Assembly (NCBI GenBank): GCA_041891055.1
Contig: CP169074.1
Span: 1,792,001 to 1,856,000, forward strand
Direction: 5' to 3'
Length of the DNA: 64,000 nucleotides
DNA from: Halorutilales archaeon Cl-col2-1
Lineage (GTDB): Archaea; Halobacteriota; Halobacteria; Halobacteriales; Afararchaeaceae
The translations under genes were made by a program, and so were the position numbers. How positions within the stretch are numbered: the stretch's first letter is position 1; the number at the start of each line of letters is the position of its first letter. The notes below the pieces were generated by a model that did no database searches, had not been told where the DNA came from, and was given only the letters and a program-made list of their open reading frames with translations. This document shows, piece by piece, positions 12,767 to 59,584 of the stretch.

Positions 12767-12868
12767 TTCGTCGATCTAAGATTTACGAGTCTTCAGAAAT
12801 CGGAGATTTCTGTGATGCAGAAAACTCCCAGAGTTTTCCAGCACAAGCAAATCGAAGATTTGCCTACG
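12767..12868 (+). repeat. Four-hairpin micro-insertion, 102 bp
   Basis: Near-identical to the reverse complement of 34958-35059; ends TACG. Confidence 0.88.
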
Positions 12869-12878
12869 CCTAAAGGCG

Positions 12879-12935
12879 TCCCCAGAACGCGGAGCGTTCT
12901 GCTGTGCGAACGAATCGCTACGCGATTCGTCAACG
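12879..12935 (+). repeat. Double-hairpin micro-insertion, 57 bp
   Basis: TC...AACG; homolog of 35062-35118. Confidence 0.88.
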
Positions 12936-13043
12936 CGTGTATCCTGCTGTGGAACCTATGATTGAATAGACTGGAGTAATTATCCGAACCCGACTCTACG
13001 TCATCTCAGACTCCTTGCTCCTAAAAAAACTAACGAGGAAATA

Positions 13044-15602
13044 ATGGATAACTCACTGTACAGATCGATCGTTGAAGAGAGTAACGACGGTGTCTTAGTC
13101 GCACGGGACGGCGAGGTGGTCTACGCCAACCGACGTCTACGAGAGATGACCGGGTACTCCGAGGACGAGATAGTTGGATCGTCAAAGACTATGATAGTCG
13201 CCCCTGGGTATATCGACGAAGTCGAGGGATACCACCGAGCACGTATCGAAGGAAAGTCGGCTCCTAACCTGTATGAGGTAGAGATTCAAACACGCGACGG
13301 CGACCCAGTCCCCGTCGAACTTTCGGTCAGCCGAGTTAAACACGAGGGGGAACCGGTGTCAGTCTCTTTCTGGCGTGAAATCACCGAGAGGAAGGAGAAG
13401 AAACGCGAGCTACAAGATCTCAAGCACGAGTACGAGTCAGTATTCGAGAACGTTCAGGACGCCCTCTTCCTACTTGATGTTGACGAGGGCGGTACGGTTC
13501 GGTTCCAGCGGTTTAACGAGCAGGAGGAGGAGTACACGGGGAAGTCGACAGAGGAAGTCCGCGGAAAGACACCTGTCGAGGCTTTCGGAGAGGATATCGG
13601 ATCAGAGCTACGGTCGAACTACCGACAATGTATCGAACGCTGTGAGACGGTAGTCTACGAGGAGGAGCTGACTCTCGGCGGCAAAACCCGTGTCTGGCAG
13701 ACGAAGCTAACACCCGTCGTCGTCGACGGAGAGGTCGAGAAGATTGTCGGTGCGGGACGTGACATCACCGAACTCAAGGAGTACGAGGAAGAGCTCGAAA
13801 GTGCCCGGAAGAGGTTACGTGTACTATTCGATGAGGCACCCGACGCGATGGCTATCCACGACTCCGAGGGTGAGATTCTCGACGTCAACCAGGCAGCCGT
13901 CGAGTATCTCGGCTACTCTAGAGACGGTCTCCTTTCTATGAATATCTCCGATTTCGAGGTGGAAGAGACGAAGGAAGACCTGCGTGAGATGTGGTCGGAT
14001 ATGGAGACCGGAGAAACCGCAAAGCTCAAAACCAAACATGAGCGCAAAGACGGATCAACTTATCCCGTCGAGGTCTGGATATCGAGGATAGAAGTCCATG
14101 GCAAGCCACGGTATTTCGCACTCGCGCGTGACATCACTGAGCGCAGGGAGTACGAGAAGGAGATGGAGGAGAAGAATGCCTTACTCTCGACACTCTTCGA
14201 GGCGTTACCCATCGGGGTGCTGGCTGAGGACGAATCACGCAACGTCCTGGAGATCAACCAACAGCTGTTCAGTATCTTTGGTATTCAGGAGGACTCAGAC
14301 GAAGCCGTCGGAAGGGACTGTGAGAAAATGGCAGAGGAACTCAAAGACATCTTCGTCGACTCTGACGGCTTCGTCGAACGTATCAACAGTATAGTTGAGA
14401 ACCAGAAACCTGTTGACAACGACGAACTCGAACTCGAAGACGGACGTATCCTCGAACGTACCTACCGACCTATCGAGATGCTCGGTGACGACGGACATCT
14501 CTGGATCTACCGTGACATCACTGAGCGAAGGGAGTACGAGAGCGATCTTCGACACGCACGCGAGGAGCTTCGCCAGATCATAGACCTCGTCCCGGACATG
14601 ATATTCGCCAAGGACAGAGAAGGTAAGTATCTCCTCGCCAACAAGAAGACTGCCGAGGTCTACGGACTTACTCCTGAGGAGGTCGAGGGATCGTTCGAGA
14701 AGGATGTGATACCCGATCCCGAGGACTCCGAGGAGTACAGACAGGACGACATAGAAGTCATCGAGTCGGGTGAGCCGAAGGATATTCCCGAGGAGGAGAT
14801 AACCACCGCGGACGGCGAGACACGTCTACTCCAGACTACGAAGATACCCTACAAGGTGCCCGGCACCGGCGAGGACGCTGTTCTCGGATACGCGCGTGAC
14901 GTCACCGAACTCAAGGAGTACGAGACTGAACTCGAAGAGCAGCGTGACAACCTCGAACTCCTCAACCAGGTCGTCCGTCACGACATACGTAACGATCTTC
15001 AGCTCGTCTTAGCTTATGCCGACGCATTAGATATGTACGTCGAAGAAGGAGGACAGGGTTACATAGAGAAGGTTCTAGATGCGGCACGTGACGCCGTCGA
15101 CATCACCACGACTGCACGTGACGTCACCGAGGTGATGCTCAAGTCGGAGTCTGACAGACGTCCGGTGAGTCTGAGATCCACTCTTGAGGACAAGGTTGAC
15201 GACGCGAGGTCGAACCACGAGGACGCCCTTATAACCATAGACGGTTCTGTCCCCGATATCGATGTCCTCGCAGACGACATGCTGGAGTCGGTCTTCAGGA
15301 ACCTCCTAAATAATGCCATACAGCACAACGACAAGGAGGTCGCCGAGGTCAGCGTCTCAGTGGCTGTCGAGGACGGAGACGCCGTGGTAAGGATCGCCGA
15401 CAACGGACCCGGAGTTCCTGACAAACTCAAACAAGAGATATTCGAGGAGGGTGAGATGGGTATCGAAAGCAGAGGAACGGGTCTCGGACTCTATCTTGTC
15501 GACACTCTCGTAGACGGCTACGGTGGCGAGGTCTGGGTCGAGGACAATCCCGACGAGCCTGAGGGATCAGTATTTAAAGTCAGGTTTCAGAAAGCCGAGT
15601 GA
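13044..15602 (+). CDS. Multi-PAS sensor histidine kinase
   Basis: About five PAS/PAC repeats ending RDITE; VRHDIRND; DNGPG; GTGLGLYLV. Confidence 0.93.
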   Translation: MDNSLYRSIVEESNDGVLVARDGEVVYANRRLREMTGYSEDEIVGSSKTMIVAPGYIDEVEGYHRARIEGKSAPNLYEVEIQTRDGDPVPVELSVSRVKHEGEPVSVSFWREITERKEKKRELQDLKHEYESVFENVQDALFLLDVDEGGTVRFQRFNEQEEEYTGKSTEEVRGKTPVEAFGEDIGSELRSNYRQCIERCETVVYEEELTLGGKTRVWQTKLTPVVVDGEVEKIVGAGRDITELKEYEEELESARKRLRVLFDEAPDAMAIHDSEGEILDVNQAAVEYLGYSRDGLLSMNISDFEVEETKEDLREMWSDMETGETAKLKTKHERKDGSTYPVEVWISRIEVHGKPRYFALARDITERREYEKEMEEKNALLSTLFEALPIGVLAEDESRNVLEINQQLFSIFGIQEDSDEAVGRDCEKMAEELKDIFVDSDGFVERINSIVENQKPVDNDELELEDGRILERTYRPIEMLGDDGHLWIYRDITERREYESDLRHAREELRQIIDLVPDMIFAKDREGKYLLANKKTAEVYGLTPEEVEGSFEKDVIPDPEDSEEYRQDDIEVIESGEPKDIPEEEITTADGETRLLQTTKIPYKVPGTGEDAVLGYARDVTELKEYETELEEQRDNLELLNQVVRHDIRNDLQLVLAYADALDMYVEEGGQGYIEKVLDAARDAVDITTTARDVTEVMLKSESDRRPVSLRSTLEDKVDDARSNHEDALITIDGSVPDIDVLADDMLESVFRNLLNNAIQHNDKEVAEVSVSVAVEDGDAVVRIADNGPGVPDKLKQEIFEEGEMGIESRGTGLGLYLVDTLVDGYGGEVWVEDNPDEPEGSVFKVRFQKAE

Positions 15603-15690
15603 ACCCCCTTTGGAGATGACGGAGTTGGATCTCGGTTTACTACATATTTCCGGGACAAGAAATATACGTTAATACTCAGATATTCATCCA

Positions 15691-17175
15691 ATGACTCAGA
15701 GAATATCCACAGGAATTGAAGGTCTCGACGAAGTCATGGGATCGGGGCTTATATCCAACAGAAGCTACATGGTGCGAGGTGTACCTGGAACCGGAAAGAC
15801 CCTCCTCTGCATGGAGTTTCTGACAGCGAACCCCGACTCCTCCTCTCTCTTTGTCAACCTGAGCCAGTCCGAGGAGTCTCTGCGCGAGGACGCCGAGAGC
15901 TTCGGCTTCGATCTCTCTAATGTCGAAATACTTGATCTGAGTCCGTCACGCGACGAGTTCGGGGACGAACAGTACAGCATATTCAGTCCTGGGGAGGTCG
16001 AGACCGACGAGTACACACAGAAGATAATAGATGAGCTCGACGAGAGGTCTCCCGACAGGGTAGTGATAGACCCGCTGACACAGTTCCGTTACCTCTCACA
16101 GGACACCTACCAGTTCAACAAGCTCGTACTCTCGTTCTTCGGCTACCTCAAGGGAATAGACTCGACAGTTCTCTTTACGTCACAGAAGACGGAACAGAGA
16201 CCCGACGACGACCTCCAGTATCTCAGTGACGCCATAATAAGCCTCGACTACTCCGACGAGGGCAGAACAGTTGAGGTGACCAAGTACAGGGGCTCCGACT
16301 TCCGGAGTGGTCGACACTCGATGAAGATAGACGACGAAGGAATGACCGTCTTCCCGCGTCTCGACCTCGGCTTCGAGACACGTGACAGCCTCACAGGAGA
16401 GAAAGTATCGTCGGGAGTGCCCGAGGTCGACACACTTCTCGGCGGCGGAATCGAGAGAGGAACCGTCACGATAATATCGGGTCCTAGCGGCGTAGGTAAG
16501 ACGACTTCGGGTGCACAGTTCATGAAGGAGGCGGCTGGAAGAGGAGAGAAAGCCGTGATATACATGTTCGAGGAGAGGAAAGCATCGTTCCTACACAGGG
16601 CGGAGTCGATAAACATGCCCCTGCGTGAGATGGTCGAGAACGGTAGCCTCGAACTCAAGGAAGTCGAGGCTATGGAGACTACACCTGACGAGTTCGCTAA
16701 CCAGGTCAGAACCGATGTCGAGGAAGGTGCCGAGTTCGTGATGATCGACGGCGTAACGGGTTACAAGAGGATGATGACGAGAAGTAACAAATCGACAGAC
16801 TTGATCGACGAGATGCATAAACTCGGGAGGTTCCTCTCTAACAGGGACGTCACGACCTTCCTGATAAGTGAGATCAAGGATGTTACGGGCGATTTCAGTG
16901 CTACTGCCGAACACGTGAGTTACATAGCTGACAACATAATCTTCTTGAGATATCTGGAGATGAGTGGCGAGATGAGGAAGGCGATAGGAGTCCTCAAGAA
17001 ACGAGCCGGCAGCTTCGAGAGGATGCTCCGTGAGTTCATGATAACCGAGTACGGGGTAAAGGTCGGTGAGCCTCTCACGGGTCTCAGAGGAATCCTCACC
17101 GGCACGCCCGAGTTCGTGTCTCAGGAAGATCTAAACCTTCTTACCAACCCAGATGGAGGTGACGGCGGTAGATAG
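15691..17175 (+). CDS. KaiC-like double-domain ATPase
   Basis: Two Walker A motifs, GVPGTGKT and GPSGVGKT. Confidence 0.9.
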   Translation: MTQRISTGIEGLDEVMGSGLISNRSYMVRGVPGTGKTLLCMEFLTANPDSSSLFVNLSQSEESLREDAESFGFDLSNVEILDLSPSRDEFGDEQYSIFSPGEVETDEYTQKIIDELDERSPDRVVIDPLTQFRYLSQDTYQFNKLVLSFFGYLKGIDSTVLFTSQKTEQRPDDDLQYLSDAIISLDYSDEGRTVEVTKYRGSDFRSGRHSMKIDDEGMTVFPRLDLGFETRDSLTGEKVSSGVPEVDTLLGGGIERGTVTIISGPSGVGKTTSGAQFMKEAAGRGEKAVIYMFEERKASFLHRAESINMPLREMVENGSLELKEVEAMETTPDEFANQVRTDVEEGAEFVMIDGVTGYKRMMTRSNKSTDLIDEMHKLGRFLSNRDVTTFLISEIKDVTGDFSATAEHVSYIADNIIFLRYLEMSGEMRKAIGVLKKRAGSFERMLREFMITEYGVKVGEPLTGLRGILTGTPEFVSQEDLNLLTNPDGGDGGR

Positions 17176-17407
17176 TATGCTAAATGTTACTCGTGAATAC
17201 ATCGGTTATCAGGAAAAGATTCCCGACAACGCCATATACTAGGCATCTGGCGGATTCGAGTCAGAAGAGGCAGCCCAAACCGGATGGGAGAACCGCAAGG
17301 GCTATCGACATACACGGGAAAAACCTGACACTCCGTCGAGTAACACCTCCGGCAAGCCCCGGGATGTAGCCTCTCGCGGTGAATAGTAGTAGATAACCCG
17401 CTTAGTC

Positions 17408-17914
17408 TCAGGCGACGTCTCTCTCCTCTGTGAATACCACTGTTTTCTCGTCGGACTCTATCTTAGTCTCGATAGTTATCAGACCGTCGTTCGATCTTAT
17501 CTTCATTCCTCCTCCAAAACCTACGTCGACCTCCTGCGTCTGTGTATAGCTCTCTCCGGCTTCCAGGTCGCCTATTCTCTTGCTCCCCTCCCAGATAAGA
17601 TCACCGCCAGAGTAGATCTTCGTGCTGACCTCTACGTTGTGGGCGTCGGCGTCGCCCGTGTTATACAGTGTCGAGGTCACGTCTCTGCACGTAGTTCCAC
17701 AGCTCTCTATACTGACTGTCTCGATTCTGAAACCGACGCTCGACGACTCGGAGTCCGCTTCTACATCGCCGTTCCCTGTCTGAGTCTCCGTGGTTCCCTC
17801 GGGACTTAACTGCGTGTCTTCCCTAGGAGACTCGGACGGTATCATCAGAAGACCCCCCACGACTACTACGACTCCCACAACCGTTATCAGTGCTCGTTTT
17901 GTGTTTTGGTTCAT
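17408..17914 (-). CDS. Membrane-anchored exported hypothetical protein
   Basis: N-terminal hydrophobic helix; CGTTC motif; beta-rich domain. Confidence 0.7.
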   Translation of the reverse strand: MNQNTKRALITVVGVVVVVGGLLMIPSESPREDTQLSPEGTTETQTGNGDVEADSESSSVGFRIETVSIESCGTTCRDVTSTLYNTGDADAHNVEVSTKIYSGGDLIWEGSKRIGDLEAGESYTQTQEVDVGFGGGMKIRSNDGLITIETKIESDEKTVVFTEERDVA

Positions 17915-18131
17915 GTTTGATCTCCCGCGACGAATCCAACCATACCTGCTGTTAGAGTTCCCATATCTCTAATTAAGCTCGGGGCACTTCAACCCTCCAA
18001 GTAGTTGTACCCAGTTCGAGTCCTTTTCGGAGTTTTTCGGACGACTATGACTGGCAACAGAGTTTAGAGATGTCGATCCGTAGTCGAAGACTGATCCGTA
18101 CCATACCCAAACCAATACCCGAAACTGAGAC

Positions 18132-19076
18132 ATGTCACTTAGAAATATAGCCCTCCTCGGATCTCTATGTCTGATCGTGGTATCTGCAGCACTGCTTACC
18201 TTGTACGTTGACCCGAAAACCGGTTCGAAACCCGTGTCAGGCTCCTCTGTCGAGGACTCGGACGGGATCGATTACATAGTAGACCAGCCACGTGATCCAA
18301 CCCTCCGAGGTCTCGTCGTCCACCGCGAGGTCAAGAATGGAGAGCCACGTCTCTATGTCTATCTGAGGGGAAGAGGTGCTAAGGTTACGGGGAGCCTGAA
18401 TCTGAGAGACGCACGTATAACCAGACTGGAGAACGCCGACGGTAACATGGGACTCGAAAACCCACACAACTCGAAGCCGAACCTCGAAACATCGACACCA
18501 GCTGAGACTCAGTCCGTCTACGAAGATGAGATACATCTGTCACGTGACTCCGAGGGTCTGAGATACGTGATGAATACGGGAAGGTTAGTCGACGCTTTCT
18601 GGGTCTACTACGAGCCCACGGGATCCCATCCATCGTTCTCAGTCGATCTCCGATCCTCCGAAAATATATCCTCGTGGATCTACATAGGCGGATCTAACCC
18701 GGCGCGTGTTCCTCAGTCGACCCGCGTTCCTCTCGGATTCACTCACGAGGACGACACCGACGGCGATGGGATACCTGACTCCGACGAGGAAGACGGAATA
18801 ATAACTGCTGGTGGAGACGTGTACGTGACCAACCCCAGCCGACGTGACACCGATGGGGATGGACTCGGTGACGGGGATGAGATCGGAAAACGTGCGGGCG
18901 GTGTCTACTACGGAACTGTCTCCGACCCCACACGTAAAGACACCGACGGCGACGGTCTGATCGACCCCGAGGAGCTTAATACCGGGACTGACCCCTTCGA
19001 GATAGATACCGACGGTGACGGGGTTTCCGACAGCTTAGACGCGCGACCCACTGTCGAGAACCCTGACCCGGCTTAG
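18132..19076 (+). CDS. Exported protein with DTDGDG calcium-binding repeats
   Basis: N-terminal TM helix; four DTDGDG motifs. Confidence 0.7.
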   Translation: MSLRNIALLGSLCLIVVSAALLTLYVDPKTGSKPVSGSSVEDSDGIDYIVDQPRDPTLRGLVVHREVKNGEPRLYVYLRGRGAKVTGSLNLRDARITRLENADGNMGLENPHNSKPNLETSTPAETQSVYEDEIHLSRDSEGLRYVMNTGRLVDAFWVYYEPTGSHPSFSVDLRSSENISSWIYIGGSNPARVPQSTRVPLGFTHEDDTDGDGIPDSDEEDGIITAGGDVYVTNPSRRDTDGDGLGDGDEIGKRAGGVYYGTVSDPTRKDTDGDGLIDPEELNTGTDPFEIDTDGDGVSDSLDARPTVENPDPA

Positions 19077-19257
19077 CCTCACGTACGTAGATGTCGCCTC
19101 CATCCATTGGCTCGACTTTCGGGGCAAGAAATATATGTTGGTACTGTGATACGTTATCAAACTCCATCCCTCCCTCGACAGGGGGTCACGCTCCGAGCAC
19201 TCGAGTATTCAGGCACTATTCCATCACGATGTGGTGTAGAAAACTCAAAGGACGAAG

Positions 19258-19800
19258 ATGAACGAATCCTACTCGGTACTCACGTTACTCTCGAACGAGA
19301 GAGACAGACAGTTACTCGAAGACTGGATAGAGACAGAGACGACCCACGAGGTCTGTTCGGCTGAGGTAGATCAGGTCAGGAGCCGAGACGCCGAGTTCGA
19401 CCTGTGTGTACTCGACGTCGATTCGTTCGAGAGACACAGCGACTGGCTAATAGACCTAAAGGAGAAGACAGAGCCCGTAATACTCCCGTACCTTCTCCTA
19501 GTCGAGGAGGAAAACAGGGATGTTCTCGAAGGTGAACGGCTTGAGTACGCCGACGGATCTCTTTGGGGGAGCGTAGACGACATTATAAATGTCCCCCTGC
19601 GTAAACACGAGTTCCGAATCCGTCTCGACAGCCTACTCAGACTCAGGAGTCAGTCTCTCGAAATAAAGGAGGCTCGGGACGAGTACAGAAATCTGAGTCA
19701 GAGGCTTGAGAGGGAGAAGACGAAGCTTCAGAAGTACCTCGATGTCTCAGAGGCTATCGTGGTAGGACTCAACTCAGACCACACAGTAAGAGAGATAAGC
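19258..19800 (+). pseudogene. Truncated receiver-like/PAS signalling gene
   Basis: REC-like region and coiled coil, then a PAS start (YLDVSEAIVVGLN) that runs into non-acidic out-of-character sequence to 20007. Confidence 0.55.
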
Positions 19801-19834
19801 CTCTCGGTTCTGTTCTGGGGCTGTGAGACAGCTA

Positions 19835-20005
19835 CTCCTCACTGCCAGAGCCCGAAACCGCGTCCACAGACATCTCGACGTACATCGTGTGCCAGTTCCG
19901 TAGATGGTATCTCACGAGACCGACCGCACGTTTCAGCGCTCCAGACACCGAGCGCGAGCCTCTACGTCCGGACGAACCTTCTCTTCCCTTCTGTCCCAGA
20001 CTCAT
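19835..20005 (-). CDS. Possible small protein, 56 aa
   Basis: Hand-read ORF MSLGQKGRE...SGSEE divergent from the archaeosortase gene. Confidence 0.3.
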
Positions 20006-20105
20006 AACTGTCTACTTTGGCTCGACATCCTATAAGTCTTGGGAAGAGTTAACACGACACCTACCGCGCCAGTAAGCTTTTATCCGTACGTGTTAAGTCT
20101 TCTAT

Positions 20106-20939
20106 ATGGTCGGTCCTCTGATATGGATCTCGATAGGTCTCTTCCTAGCCGGCATGGTACTCGAAGACTGGTCCGACGAGCTAGCCGCCGGAGGATGGAT
20201 CGCCTTCGGAGCCTACTGGATGATGCGGTTTCCCGTCTACTACCAGGAGACACACAGCTTCATAAAGAGCATACTCGTCTTAGTCGCACTCCCAGTCTCG
20301 GTCTATGTCGCCTACGAGATATACACGAACCAACGTGACTCGCTCGTGAAGCTAAGCCACGCAGTCGCCGCTATGGGTCTCATATACCTGCCGTTCGCCT
20401 TCGTCGACCCTCTCAGGGCGGCACTCATAGAACACACTGCGCGACAGTCGTACCGTCTCCTCCAGATACTCGGAGTCGAGACGACACTCACTACACGTGA
20501 CGGAGTTCTCAACACATTCGTGACCACGAACCCCGCGACCGGAGAGACCTACGTCACCTACATAATACTCGCGTGTACCGGAATAGGAAGCATGTCGATC
20601 TTCGGAGGAGTCGTAGCCGCAGTCGACGCTCCGCTCGACAAGAAGATAAAGGCACTCGGTGTCTCGATACCCTCTATATACGTCCTCAACCTCATAAGGA
20701 ACGCCTTCATCACGACCTCGTACGGCTACCAGTGGTTCCCTCTCGCAGAGGAGACTATAAGCGGCATGATGGGCGAGCCCTACGGATACGCGAGCTTCTT
20801 CTGGGCTGACAAGGTCATCTCGCAGTCTCTGAGCGTCGTCGTCCTAGTCATCCTCACGATGGCGGTCGTCCGTCTGATGCCCGAGGTTCACGACCTCCTC
20901 ACTGACGTCTTAGACGTACTCGCGGGGAAGTCGGCGTAA
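20106..20939 (+). CDS. artA: Archaeosortase A
   Basis: IILACTGIGS, LNLIRN; multi-TM. Confidence 0.9.
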   Translation: MVGPLIWISIGLFLAGMVLEDWSDELAAGGWIAFGAYWMMRFPVYYQETHSFIKSILVLVALPVSVYVAYEIYTNQRDSLVKLSHAVAAMGLIYLPFAFVDPLRAALIEHTARQSYRLLQILGVETTLTTRDGVLNTFVTTNPATGETYVTYIILACTGIGSMSIFGGVVAAVDAPLDKKIKALGVSIPSIYVLNLIRNAFITTSYGYQWFPLAEETISGMMGEPYGYASFFWADKVISQSLSVVVLVILTMAVVRLMPEVHDLLTDVLDVLAGKSA

Positions 20940-20993
20940 CGTAACCCTAACGCGGAAGACGGATACGTACACAGATCTTAGAGACGTCCGAGA

Positions 20994-21695: not shown

Positions 21696-21741
21696 AAATT
21701 AGAACCCTTATGTGACTGGGACGGGAAGTTGTGGTTAATAG

Positions 21742-22332: not shown

Positions 22333-22387
22333 AAGAAACTGCCAAAGTTTTTAAATAACGGGAGTAATAACTTGAGGTAAGTACAAC

Positions 22388-24313: not shown

Positions 24314-24319
24314 AACTAG

Positions 24320-25519: not shown

Positions 25520-25530
25520 CTTAGACGTAT

Positions 25531-25951: not shown

Positions 25952-26208
25952 ACTCCTCTCTTTTCGTGCACGAGATCCTCTATCTCGCTGAGAGGTATCT
26001 CGGTTTCTTTCTCACGTTCTTCGACCCGCCTCTCGAACTCCTCTATAGAGGGTAGGTCTATCTTCTTGAGTACTATTCCGTGCTGTGTTGGAACTGCGAG
26101 AAGCCTGTCACCCTCATCTATTTCGTACCTCTCGCGTAACGAACTCGGTATAGTTATCTGACCCTTTGAACTGACTGTGGCTATCTCCGTCTCGTTATCG
26201 GCGCTCAT
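25948..26208 (-). CDS. AbrB/MazE-family antitoxin
   Basis: VSSKGQITIPSSLRERYEI; ATGA overlap with the PIN gene. Confidence 0.88.
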   Translation of the reverse strand: MSADNETEIATVSSKGQITIPSSLRERYEIDEGDRLLAVPTQHGIVLKKIDLPSIEEFERRVEEREKETEIPLSEIEDLVHEKRGV

Positions 26209-26249
26209 GGGTAAGAATTCCTTACTTGTCTGGATAACTCTTGCGGCGG

Positions 26250-27083: not shown

Positions 27084-27176
27084 TGGTGTTGGGACTTCGT
27101 CGAGACGTCCCTTTTTAGCTTCGTTTCCACTACGTTGTACCGTAAGTAGTAATAAGTCTGTTTGCAAGTATGTAAC

Positions 27177-28103
27177 ATGGCATTCGGAGATGTCGACAAG
27201 ATATGGATGGACGGAGATCTCAAGGACTGGGAAGACGCTCAGATACACGTCCTTTCACACGTAGTCCACTACGGAAGCGGCGTCTTCGAGGGAATCCGGT
27301 GTTACGACACAGTCCGAGGACCCGCTGTCTTCCGACACCGTGACCATTATGAGAGGTTCCATAACAGTGCCGACGCACTCGGTATAGACCTCGACTACTC
27401 GGTCGAGGAACTCGTCGATGCGACCCACGAGGTCATAGAAGAAAATGGCTTAGAGTCGTGTTACATACGTCCCGTCGCATTCTACGGCTATAACTCTCTC
27501 GGAGTCGATCCCTCCGACTGTCCCGTTCGGACAGCGATCGCTGCCTGGCCCTGGGGAGCCTACCTCGGTGAGGACGCCATAAAGAACGGCGTCGAGGTTC
27601 AGGTCTCATCGTGGAGGCGGTACCACTCGTCACAGATGCCCACCACAGCGAAGATCAACGGCGGCTACGTCAACTCGCTCCTCTCGAAGACAGAGGCTCT
27701 CGAACGTGGATACGAGGAGTCGATAATGCTCAACAAGGAGGGTGACGTCGCAGAGGGAAGCGGGGAGAACCTCTTCATGGTCGACGACGGAACTATCTAC
27801 ACTCCGGGTCTCGGATCGAGCGTCCTCAACGGCATAACACGCAGGAGCGTCGTCCAGATAGCGAACGACCTAGGATACGAGGTCGTCGAGAAGAGTATCT
27901 CACGTGGAGAGCTCTACAACGCCGACGAGCTTTTCTTCACGGGAACCGCGGCGGAGGTCACTCCTATACGTAAGGTCGACGACGTCGTCGTAGGCGAGGG
28001 TACACGTGGTTCTATCACCGAGGAGATACAGAGTACCTTCTTCGACGTCGTCGAGGGAGAACGTCCCGAGTACGACGCCTGGCTAGACTTCGTCGACGAG
28101 TAA
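27177..28103 (+). CDS. ilvE: Branched-chain amino acid aminotransferase
   Basis: HYGSGVFEG, EGSGENLF, GITR, GTAAEVTP. Confidence 0.95.
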   Translation: MAFGDVDKIWMDGDLKDWEDAQIHVLSHVVHYGSGVFEGIRCYDTVRGPAVFRHRDHYERFHNSADALGIDLDYSVEELVDATHEVIEENGLESCYIRPVAFYGYNSLGVDPSDCPVRTAIAAWPWGAYLGEDAIKNGVEVQVSSWRRYHSSQMPTTAKINGGYVNSLLSKTEALERGYEESIMLNKEGDVAEGSGENLFMVDDGTIYTPGLGSSVLNGITRRSVVQIANDLGYEVVEKSISRGELYNADELFFTGTAAEVTPIRKVDDVVVGEGTRGSITEEIQSTFFDVVEGERPEYDAWLDFVDE

Positions 28104-28217
28104 AGATCCATCTATTCTGTCTTCTGTCTCGTCTTAGTAGCTGCTCCGCTACTCTCTTTCAGCTAAAAAATAAAAACAAAACGAAAAACGGAAAGCTGTC
28201 TGTTCTACTGTTCTACT

Positions 28218-29681
28218 CTACGACGCTGAGCCGTTCTGAGCCTGCTCGATTGCAGCCTGTGTACCTTCTTCCTGTATCGTCTCTAGACTTATGCCCATCT
28301 CTTCCCACCACGTCTGGTCGGGTCTGGGCGGATTGTGGTCTATCCAGGCTGAGACGTTCGAGTCAGGTACCTGACTCTCGTTGAGCCAGTCGGGGTACTC
28401 GTCAGAGACGTCTTCGTCTCTGAGAGGCTGGTCGTACCTCGACACGTTGAGGTCTTCGAGCATGCTCTCATTGATCGGCTGATCCGACCCGACCGGTATT
28501 CCGGCGACGAGTAGCTTCTTCGTCATCGGGTTGATGTCGTAGCCGAGCTTGTGCTGGAGACGGTCGTAGTAGAGCGCCTCGTTCCTTATTCCAGAGGAGT
28601 CGTTCATGGGCGTCGATGTGGGCCAGTCCGCAGGGTGACGGTCTAGGTGCGGACGGTTGTGAGCATTCACGAAGCCAGCGACGTCCTGGGCGTCGCTCCA
28701 GTTGGTGAGGTCATGCGGCGAGTCGTACGGCATAGCCTCACGTATGAATGCTGTCGACGTGTAGAGACGGCTCATACCCGCTCCGTCGCTGTAAGATCCA
28801 CTTCCCCATATGGGTGGGTACTGTGATCCACCGAGTAGTCCCTGTCCGTCGTTGCCGTGACATCTCGAACAGTGTTCGAGGTAGAGCTTCGCACCTCTGA
28901 CAGGGTTTGTGTTCTGAACGGGCTTGCGCTCCTCTGCTTCCTGCTTCTTGAGATGTCTCCAGTAGGGCTCTGTCTCAGCAGGTGTTCCCTTGCCGAGCCA
29001 GATCATGTAGCTCTCCATCGCCTGTATCTCCTTGCTCTTCAGTGCAGGAAGTTCGCCAGCAGGCGAGTTGGGTCCTCCATCCATGCTACGGAGGAAACAT
29101 CCCGTGATACGGAGACGCATGTTACGCATTCTGTAAGTACGTCCCGTCCACTCGGGGTAGCCCGCCGAGGTTCCGACGAACGGAATCAGGTTGATGTCCT
29201 GTCCCACCATTCCGGTGGTAGTCGGAAGGTCACCTCCACCGTGGCAGTTAGCACACGAGAGGTTGTTTCCGACGTACTGAGGCATCTCCTCCGAAGTGTT
29301 TGCCATGAGGCTACGTCCGTACCTGATGAGCTCTCCACGTCTGCCGCCAGGCATCGTGGAGTCGTTCATCTCCTTGGGAACGAACTTGTACTCTGCCCCT
29401 TCTACGCTCGCGTTTCTGTGCTTGAGCCCGCCGGCGTTCCTGATGTCCTCATCTAACCACTTGTATCCCGTCCACGTTCCGGGAAGTGACGTCGGCTCAG
29501 CCTCCATGCCGCCGTTCATGTCCTGCCCGTCATCAGGGGTGTCGTCAGGTGCGCCGTCCCCTCCGGTATCACCGTCGGGCGCGCCACCGTTTCCTCCGCC
29601 CCCCATACATCCTGCTAATACCAACACTGCAGCCAGACCGGCTATAATAGCTATCTGTTTGCGTCTTGACGATCTACTCAT
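28218..29681 (-). CDS. Diheme c-type cytochrome lipoprotein, TsdA-like
   Basis: LAGC lipobox; CANCH and CSRCH; RITGCFLRSMDG; YPPIWG..SY.DGAGM. Confidence 0.8.
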   Translation of the reverse strand: MSRSSRRKQIAIIAGLAAVLVLAGCMGGGGNGGAPDGDTGGDGAPDDTPDDGQDMNGGMEAEPTSLPGTWTGYKWLDEDIRNAGGLKHRNASVEGAEYKFVPKEMNDSTMPGGRRGELIRYGRSLMANTSEEMPQYVGNNLSCANCHGGGDLPTTTGMVGQDINLIPFVGTSAGYPEWTGRTYRMRNMRLRITGCFLRSMDGGPNSPAGELPALKSKEIQAMESYMIWLGKGTPAETEPYWRHLKKQEAEERKPVQNTNPVRGAKLYLEHCSRCHGNDGQGLLGGSQYPPIWGSGSYSDGAGMSRLYTSTAFIREAMPYDSPHDLTNWSDAQDVAGFVNAHNRPHLDRHPADWPTSTPMNDSSGIRNEALYYDRLQHKLGYDINPMTKKLLVAGIPVGSDQPINESMLEDLNVSRYDQPLRDEDVSDEYPDWLNESQVPDSNVSAWIDHNPPRPDQTWWEEMGISLETIQEEGTQAAIEQAQNGSAS

Positions 29682-29871
29682 CTGTTATACCACTACGGTG
29701 TGGCTTCTTCTTCCTTTAACATAAATACTTTGACTAATACCCGTACAACCACGTGGTATTTATGTGCAATTTGCATATAAGTCGGGTGGGTTACGGGCTG
29801 AAACCGGCGCGTAAATACAATACGTTAGTTATAACCCTGTCGAAGACCCCGTCTACATAAGTGACAGAAGA

Positions 29872-31137
29872 ATGAGGAAATTACGAGTTCTAGTTCTCGT
29901 AGTACTCGGTCTAGCTCTGACGGCTTCTGCGGCTTCTGCGGCGGAGCTCAGGGGTGAGGTGAGTATAGAGAACGACGTGAATTCGGGGTATAACGTGACT
30001 GTGACTCCTCTCGACGAGAACTTCCAGAGCGTAGCCAACTCGTCGACGACACAGGTTGAGAACGGAAGCTACGTCTTTGAGGACATAGCCGACGCTGAGA
30101 GCTACTTCCTGCGTCTCAGCTATCTGAGGATGTCACATTACAAGCTGATAAACTCGACCGACCAGGGTGACTTCGTTCTCAACGAGACGGTTAGCGGTGA
30201 GGTAGTGAGACCCAACGGCTCGAACGTCACTGGACGTGCTATTAACATCATGAATAGCCAGGGTCTGATGGTAGGAGCGAGCCTGACACGTCTCGACGGC
30301 AGCTTCTCCTTCGAGCCTCTCCAGCCCGACAAGACCTACACTGTCGAGGTCATAGCTGACCAGGTTCCGTATAGGAAGAAGGTGACTACGGGGGTCAACT
30401 CGACGAATATCTCGATAGAGGTGACACCACCTACCGACGACATAGGCGTTATAGAGTCGAGTGGTGGACAGCTCGCTGATCACGTCATACAGGTCTCGAA
30501 TACACCGCCTGCGAATATGACCGACGCTTCCGATGACGCGTCTCTGTATGTAATAGAGACGATGAACGTCATCAACACGGCTGACAGACCCTTCCAGGGA
30601 CGTCTTGAGATAGGTGTTCCTGAGGATTCGCAGCCCAGTGCCGCGATGCTCAATAACCAGAGGGTTCCCTACGAGCGTGAGGGCGACACAGCTTACATAA
30701 ATACGACTATCGCCGCGGGACAGACTGCACAGATAGGTATCGCTTACAGCATACCGAGTTACAGCCTGTCGAAGGCGATAAAGTACGACACGGGAACCGT
30801 CGCAGTCGTACCGAGAGGAGGATACACGACCGATAACCTCGACTACTCCGCAAATCTCGTCGTCGGAAACGCTCCGATTCCGATGCTCACGAGTTCGCGT
30901 GAGATCAGTAGCGGCGAGGAAATCTCGGTGACATTCCCCGAGACACCCAACGGCACCGCCTCAGGTGACACCGGAGATACTGGAACCGGTGGAGACACAG
31001 GTGCAGGCGCAGGCACAGGAGGAGACGGATCGGGACAGAACGGCGGAGACGGGGGATCGAGCCTTCCCCTAACCACGATAGGTATAGCAGTCGTGGCTCT
31101 GATCGTCGCAGGAGTAGTCGTCTACAAGGTTCTTTAG
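29872..31137 (+). CDS. Exported surface glycoprotein with C-terminal TM anchor
   Basis: Signal peptide, many N-x-S/T sites, Gly/Thr linker, terminal TM. Confidence 0.75.
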   Translation: MRKLRVLVLVVLGLALTASAASAAELRGEVSIENDVNSGYNVTVTPLDENFQSVANSSTTQVENGSYVFEDIADAESYFLRLSYLRMSHYKLINSTDQGDFVLNETVSGEVVRPNGSNVTGRAINIMNSQGLMVGASLTRLDGSFSFEPLQPDKTYTVEVIADQVPYRKKVTTGVNSTNISIEVTPPTDDIGVIESSGGQLADHVIQVSNTPPANMTDASDDASLYVIETMNVINTADRPFQGRLEIGVPEDSQPSAAMLNNQRVPYEREGDTAYINTTIAAGQTAQIGIAYSIPSYSLSKAIKYDTGTVAVVPRGGYTTDNLDYSANLVVGNAPIPMLTSSREISSGEEISVTFPETPNGTASGDTGDTGTGGDTGAGAGTGGDGSGQNGGDGGSSLPLTTIGIAVVALIVAGVVVYKVL

Positions 31138-31165
31138 ACGGGGATAGGCTACTTTTTTCTATGGT

Positions 31166-31669
31166 ATGACAGACACCGTACGTGAGACTGTCGAGGAGAT
31201 ACGTAAGAGTCTCAGCCGGAGAGACGAGACCCTCGCAGTCGCCGAGTCGTGTACGGGAGGTCTCGTCTCGTCAAGACTGACTGACTACCCCGGCTCATCG
31301 TCTTTCTTCGAGAGAGGATACGTCGTCTACTCGTACGGTTCACAGCTTGAACTCGGTGTGAGAAGGGAGACACTCGACGAGTACGGTGCTGTGAGTAAAG
31401 AGACAGCGCGCGAACTCGCACAGTCAGTGCGTGACTCGTCAGGGTCGACGTGGGGAATCGCAGTCACGGGAATCACAGGTCCTTCGGGCGGTACCCACGA
31501 CAAGCCCGTCGGGACTGTCTATACCGCCGTCGCCTACTCGGGCGACTGGGGAACCTGCGACTCCTTCACGTCGGTCAGAAGAGACGAGTACGACGGCGAC
31601 AGGAGACAGATCAAGAAGAAGATGGCGGAGGGCTGTCTCAGACATCTCCTCGACGAGATTGAGATCTGA
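31166..31669 (+). CDS. CinA/PncC-family protein
   Basis: AESCTGG, GSS.FF, TGITGP.GG..KPVGTV. Confidence 0.9.
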   Translation: MTDTVRETVEEIRKSLSRRDETLAVAESCTGGLVSSRLTDYPGSSSFFERGYVVYSYGSQLELGVRRETLDEYGAVSKETARELAQSVRDSSGSTWGIAVTGITGPSGGTHDKPVGTVYTAVAYSGDWGTCDSFTSVRRDEYDGDRRQIKKKMAEGCLRHLLDEIEI

Positions 31670-32069
31670 GGACTTTCCTGACCCCGGCACCCAAGCCGTA
31701 GCTCAGACTTCCAACTCCTACTCCGATAACCACACCCCAGACGACGCCTCTCGTGACGAAGAATACGCGACTCGGGTCACGTCTCACCATTCCCTCCGAG
31801 AAGACTGCCGTCCAGTACGAGAGAAGCGGAGACATAGTAAACAGCCACGAAGACACCAGACCCGCTCGGAGAAACCCCGCCGTAGCTCCGCCAACGACGA
31901 GAACTACCGCGACTACGTTGACCAAGACGAGACTACTGTCGGGTATCAGATTCGCTTCGGTTTTGAGTTCGAGGAGTAGAACCGACGTAACCCCGAGAAA
32001 CCAGACTAAAGAGACGAGGAGGTACTTCCTGCGTAGACTGTCTCGGGTGCCGAGTAGAACATCTCTCAT
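31638..32069 (-). CDS. Membrane hypothetical protein
   Basis: Several hydrophobic segments; start uncertain. Confidence 0.5.
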   Translation of the reverse strand: MRDVLLGTRDSLRRKYLLVSLVWFLGVTSVLLLELKTEANLIPDSSLVLVNVVAVVLVVGGATAGFLRAGLVSSWLFTMSPLLSYWTAVFSEGMVRRDPSRVFFVTRGVVWGVVIGVGVGSLSYGLGAGVRKVLRSQSRRGDV

Positions 32070-32112
32070 GCTGTCATACTCCGAGGGGGTGAAGCGAGGC
32101 AGTTCTGTGAGT

Positions 32113-33093
32113 CTACTCCTTAAACGCGCTAGCAACGAGAAGCGGGAATACGAGTGTCGCCTCTGCTTCGACCTGTGTGTAGTTGGTCTGTTCCTCCTTT
32201 ATCTTGCCCCAAGAGACAGCCTCGTTGGGTGGTGCTCCCGACAGTGACCCGTCGCCCTCCATTCCCGTGGATATGTAGACGACGTAGTCGGCTCCGCCTC
32301 TGAAGAGGTTGGTCATTATGGCGTGGTGTTTCGGGACTCCGCCGCCGACCGCGATCAGACCCGTCTTTTCAGCGAGTAAGCCGTCCTCGATTAGCGAGTC
32401 GTAGTCGTCGAGTATCTCGATTCCGACCTCTGAGTCGTAGCTCTGCCGGTAGAAGTAGAGGAAGTTGCCGACCTCGGCGTCGGTCAGAGCGGGACAGTAG
32501 ACGGGGACGTCGTTGTCGGCGGCTTGTTTGAGAACCGAGTCCTCGTCGTCGAGAGTCTCGCCGAGTTCACGTGCGAACTCGGTGGGTGTCCTGATCTTCT
32601 CCTCGGCGAAGAAGTCGTCGAAGAAGTCGTAGAGGTACTCCTCCAGCCAGACGTACCGATCCGACGGGACGAAGATGTTTCCCAGACGGTTGATGCCCTT
32701 TTCACGTAGCTCCTCCTCGTCTGTCTCCCACTCTCCCATCTTGAACGGCATCTCGGTCTTGATGACGTCCTCGGTCAGCGATCCCGAAGTCGTGATAACG
32801 ACGTCGACGTATCCCTCTCGGACGAGATAAGCGACTGTCTCACGTAGCCCCGACGAGATGATGTTCGAGGTAAACGTGAGATAGACCGTCGCGTCCTCTT
32901 CCTGCATACGTTCGACGATATCGATTGCTTCTGCTAGCTGGGTTGCCTGGAACCCCGTCGTAGCGTAAGCATCGAGCATCTCACGGAAGTCGAACTCGCC
33001 ACGGAAGTCGTATCCACGTACGTCGGGGGTACCGATCTCCTCGTCAGTCCCGGGAAGGACGTGTTCGCGGGAATCAGAGTCGTCTTTATCCAT
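32113..33093 (-). CDS. dhs: Deoxyhypusine synthase
   Basis: TGFQAT, TSNIISSGLRE, GGGVPKHH, DGSLSGA..EAVSWGK. Confidence 0.95.
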   Translation of the reverse strand: MDKDDSDSREHVLPGTDEEIGTPDVRGYDFRGEFDFREMLDAYATTGFQATQLAEAIDIVERMQEEDATVYLTFTSNIISSGLRETVAYLVREGYVDVVITTSGSLTEDVIKTEMPFKMGEWETDEEELREKGINRLGNIFVPSDRYVWLEEYLYDFFDDFFAEEKIRTPTEFARELGETLDDEDSVLKQAADNDVPVYCPALTDAEVGNFLYFYRQSYDSEVGIEILDDYDSLIEDGLLAEKTGLIAVGGGVPKHHAIMTNLFRGGADYVVYISTGMEGDGSLSGAPPNEAVSWGKIKEEQTNYTQVEAEATLVFPLLVASAFKE

Positions 33094-33145
33094 GTAGGCG
33101 GTACGTCGCCGAGCGGTTTGAATATCTCGAAATGGATGGAGTAAG

Positions 33146-33193
33146 TCTCCAGAACTTGTTCTGGATGGCACGTCAATCGAAGATTGACATACG
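33146..33193 (+). repeat. Double-hairpin micro-insertion, 48 bp
   Basis: TC-tccagaac/gttctgga-tggca-cgtcaatc gaa gattgaca-TACG. Confidence 0.75.
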
Positions 33194-33244
33194 TCTCAGA
33201 TAGTGAACTACCCCACCCTACTCGCTCACGGCTAACGCCGTTCG

Positions 33245-33464
33245 TCTCAAAATCTACGAGTTTGAGGGCTCGCTAATCGGAGATTGGCGAACGCTCCTTG
33301 AGGGTGTCGTCAGAAGTGGAGCTTCTGACTGCTCACAAATCGTAGATTTGTGATGTCTCTGAGGAGACCTCAGAGGCTCGTGAACTTTCGTTCACGATGG
33401 GGCTTCCTGTTTCAACGACGTTGTCAGACTACGTCTGACAGCCTGTCGAGGTTACCTCGACAAA
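33245..33464. repeat. Four double-hairpin micro-insertions in the IS right end
   Basis: 33245-33293 (+, 49 bp), 33307-33355 (+, 49), 33356-33399 (+, 44), 33419-33464 (-, 46). Confidence 0.88.
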
Positions 33465-34665
33465 CGCACTTTGCATCCACGACGGTGGACGACCCACCAG
33501 TCGCGGACGTAGGGAGTGCAGTCTCCGCAGGCGTGACTTCGGCGTGTCCCACGCCTAACTCTGAAAGACCGCGTTGTAGCACGTTGTAGGCGGCGTTCTC
33601 GTCGCGGTCGGTCTCGAACCCACAGGTCGGGCAGGAATGTTCGCGCACCCACAGTTCTTTCTCAACCTCAACCCCGCACTCGGCACACTCTTGGGTCGTG
33701 CCCTCGGGTTCGACTTTCACGAAGTGCGTGTCCTCGCGGTCGCACTTGTATTCGAGGAAGTCGATGAACGTCCGCCACGACGCCGACGCTCTGTTGCGAC
33801 TATTCGACGGCAGTTGCATCATCTCGTGAACGTCAAGGTCTTCCACGGCTACGAGGTCGTACTCACGAGCGTAGTACGCTGAGAGTTTGTGCAGGAAGTC
33901 GCGACGCTTCCGTACAATACGAGCGTGGATGCGGGTCACGCGGCGGCGTTGCTCGTGCCAGTTCTTCGACCCCTTCACCTTGCGACTCAGCGCTCGTTGC
34001 TCGCGTTCGAGCCGTTCGTACTCGTCTTCGAGGTTGAGACTTCCGACCATCGTGCTGTCGGTGTCGTGAGCGTACTTGATGATGCCCACGTCGATACCAA
34101 CCATATCCTCGCGGTCAACCTCATCCAGAGCGGGTTTCTCGGACGCGCCGTCTTCGGTTTCGATGCCGAAGGTGGCGTACCACTCACCCGTTTTCTCTTG
34201 TTTGACCGTGACCTGTTTCACGCGGGCGTCGTCGGGGATGTCGCGGTGGAGGTGTATCGGCATCTCACCAATCTTGGAAAGGGAAAGCACGGTCTGGTCA
34301 CTCGTGTTCTTGAGTTCGAAACCAGACTGGTTGTAGGTGAGGCTCCGATACTCTCGCGGACTCTTCCACTTGAGCATCCCAACCTTGTGCCCATTCTCCT
34401 TCTTTTCTTTGAGGCGGTCGAGGTTGTCGCTGACGCGGCGGGCAACCATTTGCAACACTTTCGAGTACACGTCGGTGAGGTCGTCCCACCAATCTTTCAG
34501 GTCGGGAAGCATATTCTGCATCGCGGTGTACGATAGGTACTCGTCCGTGTTGCGGAGTTCGTACAAGTAGTGGTTGTAGAGTTGCCTACAGGCATCTATA
34601 TGCCGTTCTAGTTCAGATTGAACGGCTTCGTCGGGGTCGATGCGATATCTGTAGTTGTAGTTCAT
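33424..34665 (-). CDS. tnpB: RNA-guided endonuclease TnpB
   Basis: RuvC GIDVG / VEDL / DRDENAA; CxxC...CxxC zinc finger. Confidence 0.95.
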   Translation of the reverse strand: MNYNYRYRIDPDEAVQSELERHIDACRQLYNHYLYELRNTDEYLSYTAMQNMLPDLKDWWDDLTDVYSKVLQMVARRVSDNLDRLKEKKENGHKVGMLKWKSPREYRSLTYNQSGFELKNTSDQTVLSLSKIGEMPIHLHRDIPDDARVKQVTVKQEKTGEWYATFGIETEDGASEKPALDEVDREDMVGIDVGIIKYAHDTDSTMVGSLNLEDEYERLEREQRALSRKVKGSKNWHEQRRRVTRIHARIVRKRRDFLHKLSAYYAREYDLVAVEDLDVHEMMQLPSNSRNRASASWRTFIDFLEYKCDREDTHFVKVEPEGTTQECAECGVEVEKELWVREHSCPTCGFETDRDENAAYNVLQRGLSELGVGHAEVTPAETALPTSATGGSSTVVDAKCVCRGNLDRLSDVV

Positions 34666-34669
34666 CGTG

Positions 34670-34828
34670 TTACTCGTCTTGGTCGTCGGTTTCGTCGGGG
34701 TCGCTGACGCGGATGACTTTCACGTCTGCGCCGCGCCAGTCTTTGGGAACTGTAACGTGGGCACTCCCGCCGAACTCCTTCGCTTCACGGTCAATGATTT
34801 CTTCGCCTTCTAGTTCGAATGTGCCCAT
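34670..34828 (-). CDS. DUF2080-like transposon-associated small protein, 52 aa
   Basis: Hand-read MGTFELEGEEIIDREAKEFGGSAHVTVPKDWRGADVKVIR. Confidence 0.8.
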   Translation of the reverse strand: MGTFELEGEEIIDREAKEFGGSAHVTVPKDWRGADVKVIRVSDPDETDDQDE

Positions 34829-34888
34829 ACACAAATATATATTGGGCATATATTATATGTTTCGGTGGAGAATGACGATAGCTTACGG

Positions 34889-35251
34889 CTGTTGCAAGAT
34901 CTACGATCTTGCTATCCACAAATTCGGAGAATTTGTGACTGTATCCCCGACCTACTGCGTATGAAAATCGAAGATTTACTTGTGCTAGAAAACTCTACGA
35001 GTTTTCTGCATCACAGAAATCTCTGATTTCTGAAGACCCGTGAATCTTAGATTCACGGACGTCCTCAGAACGCGAAGCGTTCTGATGTGCGAACGAGACG
35101 CGAAGCGTCTCGTCAACGCTACTCACTCGCTTCGCTCGTTGTGTTGCCGTCCGAAAATCTTCGATTTTCGTGATCTCGGAAATCTACGATTTCCGACGGT
35201 ACGCGAATCCTTGATTCGCTCGATCACGAGAGAGCGAAGCTCTCTCGAACG
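34889..35251. repeat. Four hairpin micro-insertions in the IS left end
   Basis: 34889-34938 (-, 50 bp), 34958-35059 (-, 102), 35062-35118 (+, 57), 35150-35251 (+, 102). Confidence 0.88.
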
Positions 35252-59575: not shown

Positions 59576-59584
59576 ACTCGAAAG

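Follow-up and report, generated by a model that had tools for sequence, protein, structure and literature searches.

This report concerns a family of short DNA hairpins found in a stretch of 64,000 nucleotides from Halorutilales archaeon Cl-col2-1 (contig CP169074.1, positions 1,792,001 to 1,856,000; hereafter, the window). The genome comprises 2.06 Mb in four contigs with a GC content of 55%, and it is that of a haloarchaeon, as its DnaK shares 77% identity with the Halorientalis protein. Two long copies of hairpin arrays in the window make up an inverted repeat (12752-12869 versus 34957-35074; 118 nt, 82% complementary). The original prediction described them as paired 57-bp and 102-bp units, with both arms of the second hairpin of the 57-bp unit changed together, and these sequences were located as described, at 12910-12930 (acgaatcgc-tac-gcgattcgt) and 35093-35113 (acgagacgc-gaa-gcgtctcgt). 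The features to which the two copies belong are as follows, with the strand given where one was assigned; IS denotes an insertion sequence.

12740-12945: solo array of six 21-nt hairpins, with no tnpB nearby and flanks like an IS-end sequence; a four-hairpin block (about 12765-12868, the 102-bp unit) comes first and a 57-nt double hairpin (about 12876-12937) second
33144-35279, minus strand: 2.1-kb block holding a TnpB insertion sequence with hairpin-laden non-coding ends (about 18 hairpins), absent at the orthologous site of a congener (genome G001)
33161-33376: six hairpins 3' of tnpB; the triple gtcagaag/tcacaaatc/tctctgagg is also present 3' of four other tnpB copies
33424-34665, minus strand: tnpB of the IS200/IS605 type (OrfB_IS605 and Cas12f1-like TNB domains; PF01385, 6e-25, and PF07282, 2e-21)
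34893-35247: twelve hairpins 5' of tnpB, including the inverted four-hairpin block (34957-35074) and a 57-nt double hairpin (about 35057-35122)

The second copy (34957-35118) is located within the 615-nt 5' part of the TnpB insertion sequence, and the corresponding empty site was found in the congener, where positions 1160 to 1172 of contig C15 join window positions 33143 to 35280. A small open reading frame (ORF) of 59 residues (34670-34849, minus strand) lies directly upstream of tnpB, within the block missing from the congener. No stretch orthologous to the window upstream of 13038 was found in the congener by alignment. The metagenome contigs matching window positions 32900-35400 were short and came from other organisms; none of them spans the region, the hairpin parts were covered very deeply and the unique flanks almost not at all, making these contigs uninformative for this organism. 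A look for RNA evidence at the same positions listed no source. Of the two copies, that at 34957-35118 occupies the non-coding 5' end of the TnpB element, and that at 12752-12935 is probably what is left, on its own, of an end of this kind. The four-hairpin block occurs in five copies in the genome. Their alignment demonstrates near-identical linkers (gagtct/gggtct, gatgc and agcac), two stems identical across all five copies, and varying loops (gga/aga/aga/aga/ttc, cca/gta/gta/gta/taa and gaa/gaa/gaa/ttc/gaa), in agreement with the earlier observation that the 102-bp units keep their linkers and differ in the loops gga/aga, cca/gta and gaa/ttc.

The hairpins represent a genome-wide family with a unit of defined size. 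The main contig contains 125 perfect hairpins with a 3-nt loop and an 8-bp stem, 114 with a 9-bp stem and one with a 10-bp stem, against 18 (8-bp stem) and four (9-bp stem) in the block-shuffled main contig. The single 10-bp stem versus 114 stems of 9 bp indicates that the unit is a fixed 21 nt. A scan for the 9+3+9 arrangement yielded 146 units with all nine pairs in the whole genome and six in the shuffled main contig. The unit is a hairpin with a 9-bp stem, an A-rich 5' arm, a mostly C-G closing pair and a 3-nt loop (consensus TCGNAAATC-NNN-GATTTNCGA). About 427 units were catalogued at 201 loci, separated by linkers of mostly 2-5 nt, in arrays of up to 12 units, and even numbers of units are favoured (58 loci with two units versus 12 with three; 16 with four versus four with five). 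The fully paired units are about 20-fold denser between genes (107 units, 0.44 per kb) than within called ORFs (39 units, 0.02 per kb), as judged from our own ORF-based gene calls, which are a rough input. The units are distributed among the types of spacers in proportion to spacer length (106 in 72 kb of divergent, 197 in 122 kb of tandem and 71 in 46 kb of convergent spacers), which speaks against a role at gene ends or promoters.

The loci with two units recurrently read CGT-[hairpin]-GC/GGC/GCC-[hairpin]-ACG. A direct scan found 40 canonical modules of this type, 50-51 nt in length, in this genome and 24 in the G001 sample; here CGT precedes 37 and ACG follows 35 of the 40, and the tag has C or T as its fourth base. 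The 57-bp unit of the original prediction is a variant of the module with a 7-nt linker (ACGTCC-hairpin-TGTGCGA-hairpin-CAACG). DNA folding predicts a T-shaped three-way structure for the module on either strand (z-scores of -4.8 and -5.1). A different repeat of 113 nt (ATCCCTCCC...TTCTCGTGA) holds one 9-3-9 hairpin and demonstrates presence or absence between the genomes at two sites (C1:100868-100970 in this genome and C1:34581-34685 in G001).

Stem covariation is significant in four tests, one of which used a metagenome sample chosen regardless of pairing. When only the apex of the hairpin was used as an anchor (ATCNNNGAT), at least five of the six outer pairs were formed in 160 of 242 intergenic instances versus 31 of 372 coding ones, and at position 4/18 all four Watson-Crick pairs occurred (CG 70, TA 42, AT 37, GC 35). 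Mutual information calculated for 219 distinct apex-anchored 29-mers was highest for the mirror pairs 4-18, 3-19, 5-17, 6-16 and 2-20 (0.36-0.75), the maximum over 200 column shuffles being 0.164. The 34 family units of the window, which had been picked by pairing, contained 93.6% paired cells versus 59.9% after shuffling and gave a covariation score of 0.823 versus 0.179, with none of 500 shuffles as high and slid controls at 0.08-0.13. Public metagenome contigs were scanned with a pattern built on the 57-bp unit, its linker and unvarying stem bases being fixed and the two variable dinucleotides and the loop left free. The resulting 98 distinct copies, aligned with the two window copies in 100 rows, scored 0.241 versus 0.102 (none of 500 shuffles as high). 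The neighbouring first hairpin, unconstrained by the pattern, was completely paired in 59 of the 98 copies and paired at eight or more of nine positions in 79, whereas arms drawn from different copies gave 22% and 38%, respectively. A lack of significance once many copies were aligned had been set beforehand as the result that would refute the original prediction; the covariation survives such an alignment. Among the stem mismatches, G-T and T-G (57) are not in excess over A-C and C-A (80), so there is no sign of tolerance at the RNA level.

The particular difference that drew attention to the two window copies has another meaning than supposed. The variable dinucleotide in ACGA-NN-CGC is either AT or GA, with the other arm always matching, in all seven copies of this genome and all ten of the G001 sample (17/17). 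Among 76 distinct metagenome copies, 44 were GA/TC, 30 AT/AT and two unpaired, with no intermediates, and both alleles are present in the same linker context in both species. AT and GA are the sole alleles in both congeners and in the metagenomes, without intermediates; the difference is one old split into two subfamilies, and neither repeated compensation nor a change between these two loci. The neighbouring hairpin of the 57-nt unit is more diverse; in the metagenome copies it has nine perfect stem types, with seven of the nine pairs changed on both sides.

The loops vary much more freely than the stems. Five triplets and their complements (GAA/TTC, GGA/TCC, AAA/TTT, AGA/TCT and GTA/TAC) account for 294 of the 427 loops; 18 copies of a single stem type, CGTGAATC, carry 11 different loops, and loops on the same stem type occur as reverse-complement pairs. 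In the metagenome copies of the second hairpin, 24 loops stand on two invariant stems, and entropy within the unit is highest in the loop columns. Triloops of the type C-GNA-G are unusually stable in DNA. Canonical modules show a loop polarity: 45 of 64 carry T-N-Y in the 5' hairpin together with R-N-A in the 3' one, and two have the reverse order (27 and one of 40 in this genome; 18 and one of 24 in G001), and the rule is the same on both strands. Along the arrays, loop orientations were counted as YR 61, RY 49, YY 45 and RR 36. As alternation is only weakly in excess, a strict alternation of the BIME type was dropped.

Loops also flip in place. At least two of 50 orthologous hairpins differ from their G001 counterparts solely in that the loop is reverse-complemented (C1:748637, tct/aga; C1:1509547, aaa/ttt), and a third inversion, taa/tta, is visible in the printed alignment. 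Since the exact reverse complement of the loop is the only difference, in-place flipping is real, as the original prediction anticipated, and it explains part of the excess divergence of loops. The count of reverse-complement loop pairs suggested along with it was less telling: in paralogous arrays, 40 of 1248 pairs were reverse-complement, 426 identical and 782 other, with about 5% reverse-complement pairs expected by chance from the loop frequencies and the comparison confounded by the mutual resemblance of the units, for which reason orthologous hairpins were compared instead.

Genome G001 belongs to the same genus and differs from this genome by about 6% substitutions; 1.15 Mb of its approximately 1.9 Mb were compared, and 1.02 Mb aligned. 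Among the arrays of two or more units with both flanks placed in G001, 18 of 21 differ in length (12 longer here, six longer in G001) and three are equal. About 20 of 42 clean small indels read as composed of 9-3-9 hairpins, with net sizes of 45, 48 (four times), -48, 49, 50, 51, -51, 54, -54, 91, 97, 99, -155, 194 and -303 nt. The step of about 48 nt corresponds to one double hairpin (CGT-hairpin-GC-hairpin-ACG), and the junctions place the element ends at CGT...ACG. The following features of the window belong to this class.

45303-45390: hairpin insertion of about 99 nt with four hairpins (two with 4-nt loops), absent in G001, where the empty site is itself a small hairpin
51458-51505: 48-nt double hairpin, absent in G001, adjoining a double hairpin common to both genomes (51510-51554)
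53154-53221: three-hairpin array; a different, longer array occupies the same site in G001 (230 nt versus 68 nt)
59608-59655: 48-nt double hairpin after codon 8 of a PIN_2-domain gene that is uninterrupted in G001

Resident hairpins decay at a roughly neutral rate. In the 50 gap-free orthologous hairpins, divergence amounted to 35 of 900 positions in the stems (3.9%, a value biased downwards, as the units were chosen as intact in this genome), 55 of 1500 in the 15-nt flanks (3.7%) and 17 of 150 in the loops; a change in a single arm was found in eight hairpins, and a clear in-place compensated pair in none. Whole units diverge by 5.2% versus 6.2% for other intergenic DNA. A few aligned pairs resemble a wholesale swap of one double hairpin for another and may be paralogous IS copies. 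The original suggestion of selection on the structure of single-stranded DNA (ssDNA) or RNA thus stands as far as the covariation of stems is concerned, but not as selection at these loci: most arrays differ between the congeners, stems diverge like flanks, and G-T pairs are not favoured.

Indels of 15 nt or more number 167 in the aligned 1.02 Mb, with many insertions of 1.2-2.4 kb among them. Eight such insertions of this genome hold tnpB and have an empty orthologous site in G001, from which the boundaries of the elements follow; TnpB elements thus appear to have been recently active or recently lost in the genus, though this genome has one Y1 transposase gene. Altogether, 24 OrfB_IS605 (tnpB) matches were found, and a further tnpB (25 in all) adjoins the Y1_Tnp gene at C1:979011-979418, which has a six-hairpin array on one side and, as in an ordinary IS200/IS605 element, the divergent tnpB on the other. 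The IS end palindromes defined by the empty sites are GC-rich (for example, CCCCGTCG-TTTA-CGACGGGG) and unlike the 9-3-9 hairpins. The hairpins lie within or beside these palindromes, in numbers varying between IS copies of one family. Modules were found within the larger IS-end palindromes CCCCGACC..GGTCGGGG, CCCCGCCC..GGGCGGGG and CAAGCCTCGT..ACGGGGCTTG, and nested modules in left-end/right-end (LE/RE) palindromes occur at C1:154.6k, 682.5k and 979.4k.

Thirteen arrays lie wholly inside called ORFs, six of which were confirmed as genes. Their coordinates on contig C1 are the following.

1751592-1753667: methionyl-tRNA synthetase
1620734-1621957: M24 peptidase
1773749-1774960: aminotransferase
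1918476-1919432: ThiN
1725262-1727559: Hel308-like helicase
641670-646688: family B DNA polymerase (intein)

The in-gene inserts are in frame and add 16-26 residues, and five of them are read in one common frame, giving a peptide like VHQSxIDEPVNQRLTD. G001 lacks the insert of the M24 peptidase gene, which in this genome leaves the reading frame open; that of the methionyl-tRNA synthetase gene has equal length in G001. In the PIN_2-domain gene of the window (59345-60049), which is intact in G001, the 48-nt double hairpin adds an in-frame TGA; a TTG in the second hairpin could restart translation, minus the conserved N-terminal aspartate.

The family is widespread. The core motif was found in 23 of 41 genomes of the order Halobacteriales, and a reversed control pattern gave no match. 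Five other genera also have 9-3-9 hairpins in pairs and arrays, and in two of them there was no Y1 transposase match. The 57-nt unit matched 50 haloarchaeal plasmid records with 84-91% identity, and in 14 of the 15 matches listed no feature is annotated under the match. Comparison of the occurrence of Y1 transposase and of the hairpin motif in the 41 genomes revealed no clear link, related genomes being non-independent samples.

It might be supposed that the hairpins serve the host, for example as terminators, RNA stabilisers, small RNAs or ssDNA signals, and are kept by purifying selection on structure at each locus. The strong covariation, the restriction of 294 of 427 loops to R-N-A or T-N-Y and the mainly intergenic position of the units are what such elements would show. 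Against this, the arrays turn over between congeners (18/21), the units populate all types of spacers by length and enter genes, the stems diverge like their flanks, and the mismatches show 57 G-T/T-G versus 80 A-C/C-A. Comparison of the window with Rfam covariance models gave a tRNA as the sole match at the gathering score, leaving the hairpin arrays unmatched. This explanation is very unlikely. Still harder to credit is the assumption that a dimeric protein binds the units as double-stranded DNA, be it as palindromic operators or as nucleoid sites, with palindromy selected for recognition and not for folding. The two-fold symmetry of canonical modules, which includes the class of the loops (45/64), and the conserved apex AATC-NNN-GATT would suit it, but all four Watson-Crick pairs are found at the outer positions of the stem, which fits the recognition of structure and not of sequence, and turnover and copies in genes also disagree with it.

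Two further explanations account for part of the data. Intrastrand template switching or repair in quasi-palindromes can make and keep perfect stems and invert loops, mobility being secondary. The exact loop inversions at orthologous hairpins (tct/aga and aaa/ttt, plus taa/tta), the reverse-complement loop pairs on one stem type and the AT and GA alleles without intermediates are in line with it. However, eight of 50 orthologous hairpins keep an uncorrected change in a single arm and none is clearly compensated in place; stems diverge as flanks do; only two alleles exist, whereas ongoing conversion of random mutations should yield many; and new perfect hairpins arise as whole 48-nt modules. 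Template switching in place is supported for loop inversion alone and is improbable as the general cause. It is likewise rather improbable, if anything a little more so, that the hairpins belong integrally to IS200/IS605 ends, as transposase-binding hairpins or as a guide-RNA scaffold, with solo arrays as end remnants, like PATEs. In its favour, 107 of 427 units flank the 25 tnpB genes, the four-hairpin block lies 5' of tnpB in three of its five copies, a triple hairpin lies 3' of five tnpB copies, and the only tnpA of the genome adjoins a six-hairpin array. Yet 48-nt modules are gained or lost alone, far from any IS and in genes, the number of hairpins varies among IS copies of one family, and the hairpins are nested inside the larger GC-rich end palindromes.

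It is likely that the two long copies are mosaics of REP-like or SMR-like miniature mobile double hairpins whose folding is selected at the level of the element and not at the host locus. Such modules would insert into terminal palindromes or non-coding ends of IS200/IS605-type (TnpB) elements without consistent target duplication, would settle beside earlier modules and so build up arrays, and would occasionally enter genes in frame. Presumably, only foldable copies found new copies, probably as single-stranded DNA during transfer, and resident copies would then decay or be deleted. Stems would stay complementary because of this passage through a folded state, which would lead to discrete compensated stem subfamilies while the loops vary freely. 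Mobility of double hairpins would also account for conserved linkers, arrays at insertion-prone sites and the absence of orthologous conservation.

Several points weigh against this explanation. Neither a consistent target duplication nor a target motif was found at the junctions read, and in about half of them 1-6 target bases are replaced, which fits no textbook mechanism. With two genomes and no outgroup, insertion is not distinguishable from imprecise excision, and the coverage of the congener was partial. Most unit sets were selected by pairing and so carry an ascertainment bias; the comparison of stems with flanks favours copies that are intact in this genome, and the gene calls are rough. 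The loops are not wholly free, as their polarity in canonical modules indicates. The dissimilarity between IS end palindromes and the 9-3-9 hairpins bears on the candidate mover, as do two near-complete genomes (G034 and G036) that contain 11 and 14 copies of the motif and no Y1 match.

The modules would be moved by an enzyme acting on single-stranded hairpins. The first candidate is the Y1 (HUH) transposase TnpA of IS200/IS605, an assignment that is tentative and somewhat doubtful. A bolder proposal, which must be regarded as unlikely, is that the T-shaped double hairpin of 48-57 nt is a self-contained single-strand DNA transposon, an archaeal counterpart of CGTC-REP dimers and among the smallest mobile DNAs. 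An HUH-type enzyme would read the two-fold symmetric three-way junction with its fixed loop polarity, the loops would flip after insertion like the arms of parvoviral terminal repeats, and the element would settle in frame in essential genes such as that of methionyl-tRNA synthetase.

Bacterial CGTC-tagged REPs and their dimers (Di Nocera et al. 2013, PMC3733652) have stems of 8-9 bp, a CGT(C) tag, complementary base changes within families, loops of 4-5 nt and a 3-nt CCA-like tail; they occur mostly as dimers with short spacers and without a linked transposase gene, some dimers lie in larger palindromes, and intragenic copies in frame are described (Rickettsia RPE-4 and RPE-6). The modules share the CGT tag, the stem length, complementary base changes, dimers, nesting in palindromes, in-frame genic copies and the lack of a linked transposase gene, but differ by mostly 3-nt loops, GC/GGC/GCC linkers, the lack of a CCA tail, arrays of up to 12 units and the archaeal host; that paper has the word "archaea" in its reference list alone. 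Turnover between congeners is another difference, shown for the haloarchaeal modules. The SMR-A elements of Haloquadratum walsbyi (Dyall-Smith et al. 2011, PMC3119063; families HqIRS42, HqIRS43 and HqIRS55) are transposase-free, cause no target duplication, measure about 110 bp, have prominent terminal inverted repeats and insert into near-terminal palindromes of IS605-type elements and PATEs. The modules resemble them in nesting in IS-end palindromes without consistent target duplication and differ in length (48-57 nt versus about 110 bp), the comparison being with their published description. PATEs (PMC3119063) have near-terminal palindromes of about 22 bp resembling those of the parent IS, a conserved terminal oligonucleotide and a targeting sequence of 4-6 nt. 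Like PATEs, the modules are too short for a transposase gene and have neither terminal inverted repeats nor a consistent target duplication; unlike PATEs, their hairpins differ from the GC-rich IS end palindromes, and their empty sites have no common target oligonucleotide. In REPIN-RAYT systems (Bertels and Rainey 2011, PMC3116915), two short palindromic repeats together form the unit that replicates, its mover presumably being a Y1 transposase present in single copy. The modules are doublets too and this genome has a single Y1 gene, but REPIN repeats pair mutually, whereas each hairpin of the module is self-complementary, and the Y1 gene of this genome adjoins a divergent tnpB. The modules also differ from MITEs (inverted-repeat transposable elements of miniature size) in the lack of consistent target duplication, and no transposon with ends matching theirs was identified.

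The nearest described relatives of the modules are the CGTC-tagged REP dimers of bacteria and, in Haloquadratum, the SMR-A elements and PATEs; the modules have several features in common with each of them and lack at least one of its defining features. No description of double-hairpin elements of about 48 nt in haloarchaea was found in the literature, the repeat sequences published with PMC3119063 lying outside this comparison.

Two similarities concern shape and loop inversion. The inverted terminal repeat of adeno-associated virus folds into a T shape with two arms, exists in flip and flop forms, and serves as the viral replication origin at the end of a linear genome, where it is resolved by the Rep nickase. 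Each of its arms, like those of the module, has a 9-bp stem and a 3-nt loop, with loops of opposite purine/pyrimidine class and both orientations represented; the modules are interspersed chromosomal repeats, and the likeness does not go beyond shape. In the small inversions of plastid DNA, a loop between short inverted arms flips in place with the arms unchanged, but the hairpins concerned are single resident structures and not members of a mobile family.

Other features of the window were noted. Two tRNA-Gln(ttg) calls lie at 7511-7583 and 12430-12508, the second repeating a 47-nt 3' part of the first with 98% identity. The 4.9-kb segment between them has a lower GC content (43-45%), carries methyl-accepting chemotaxis and PAS histidine kinase genes, and looks like an element integrated at a tRNA gene. 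At 13374-14936, a 42-nt segment occurs five times with a spacing of 369-384 nt in the gene of an 852-residue sensor kinase; these copies are a reflection of tandem PAS domains. At 59230-59241, the congener has a 1.86-kb AT-rich insertion (C15:24979-26842) with no counterpart in this genome.

Selection on a mobile element accounts better for compensated stems that go together with variable loops and conserved linkers. Here, covariation of the textbook kind does not point to a functional host RNA, and covariation screens performed on paralogous copies can be misled. The modules break or lengthen genes, as in the PIN-domain gene of the window and the six confirmed housekeeping and replication genes elsewhere. 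They are abundant across haloarchaea, and their turnover is fast enough for use as strain markers. If the mover is a Y1/HUH enzyme, archaeal single-strand transposition would have minimal natural substrates in these modules.

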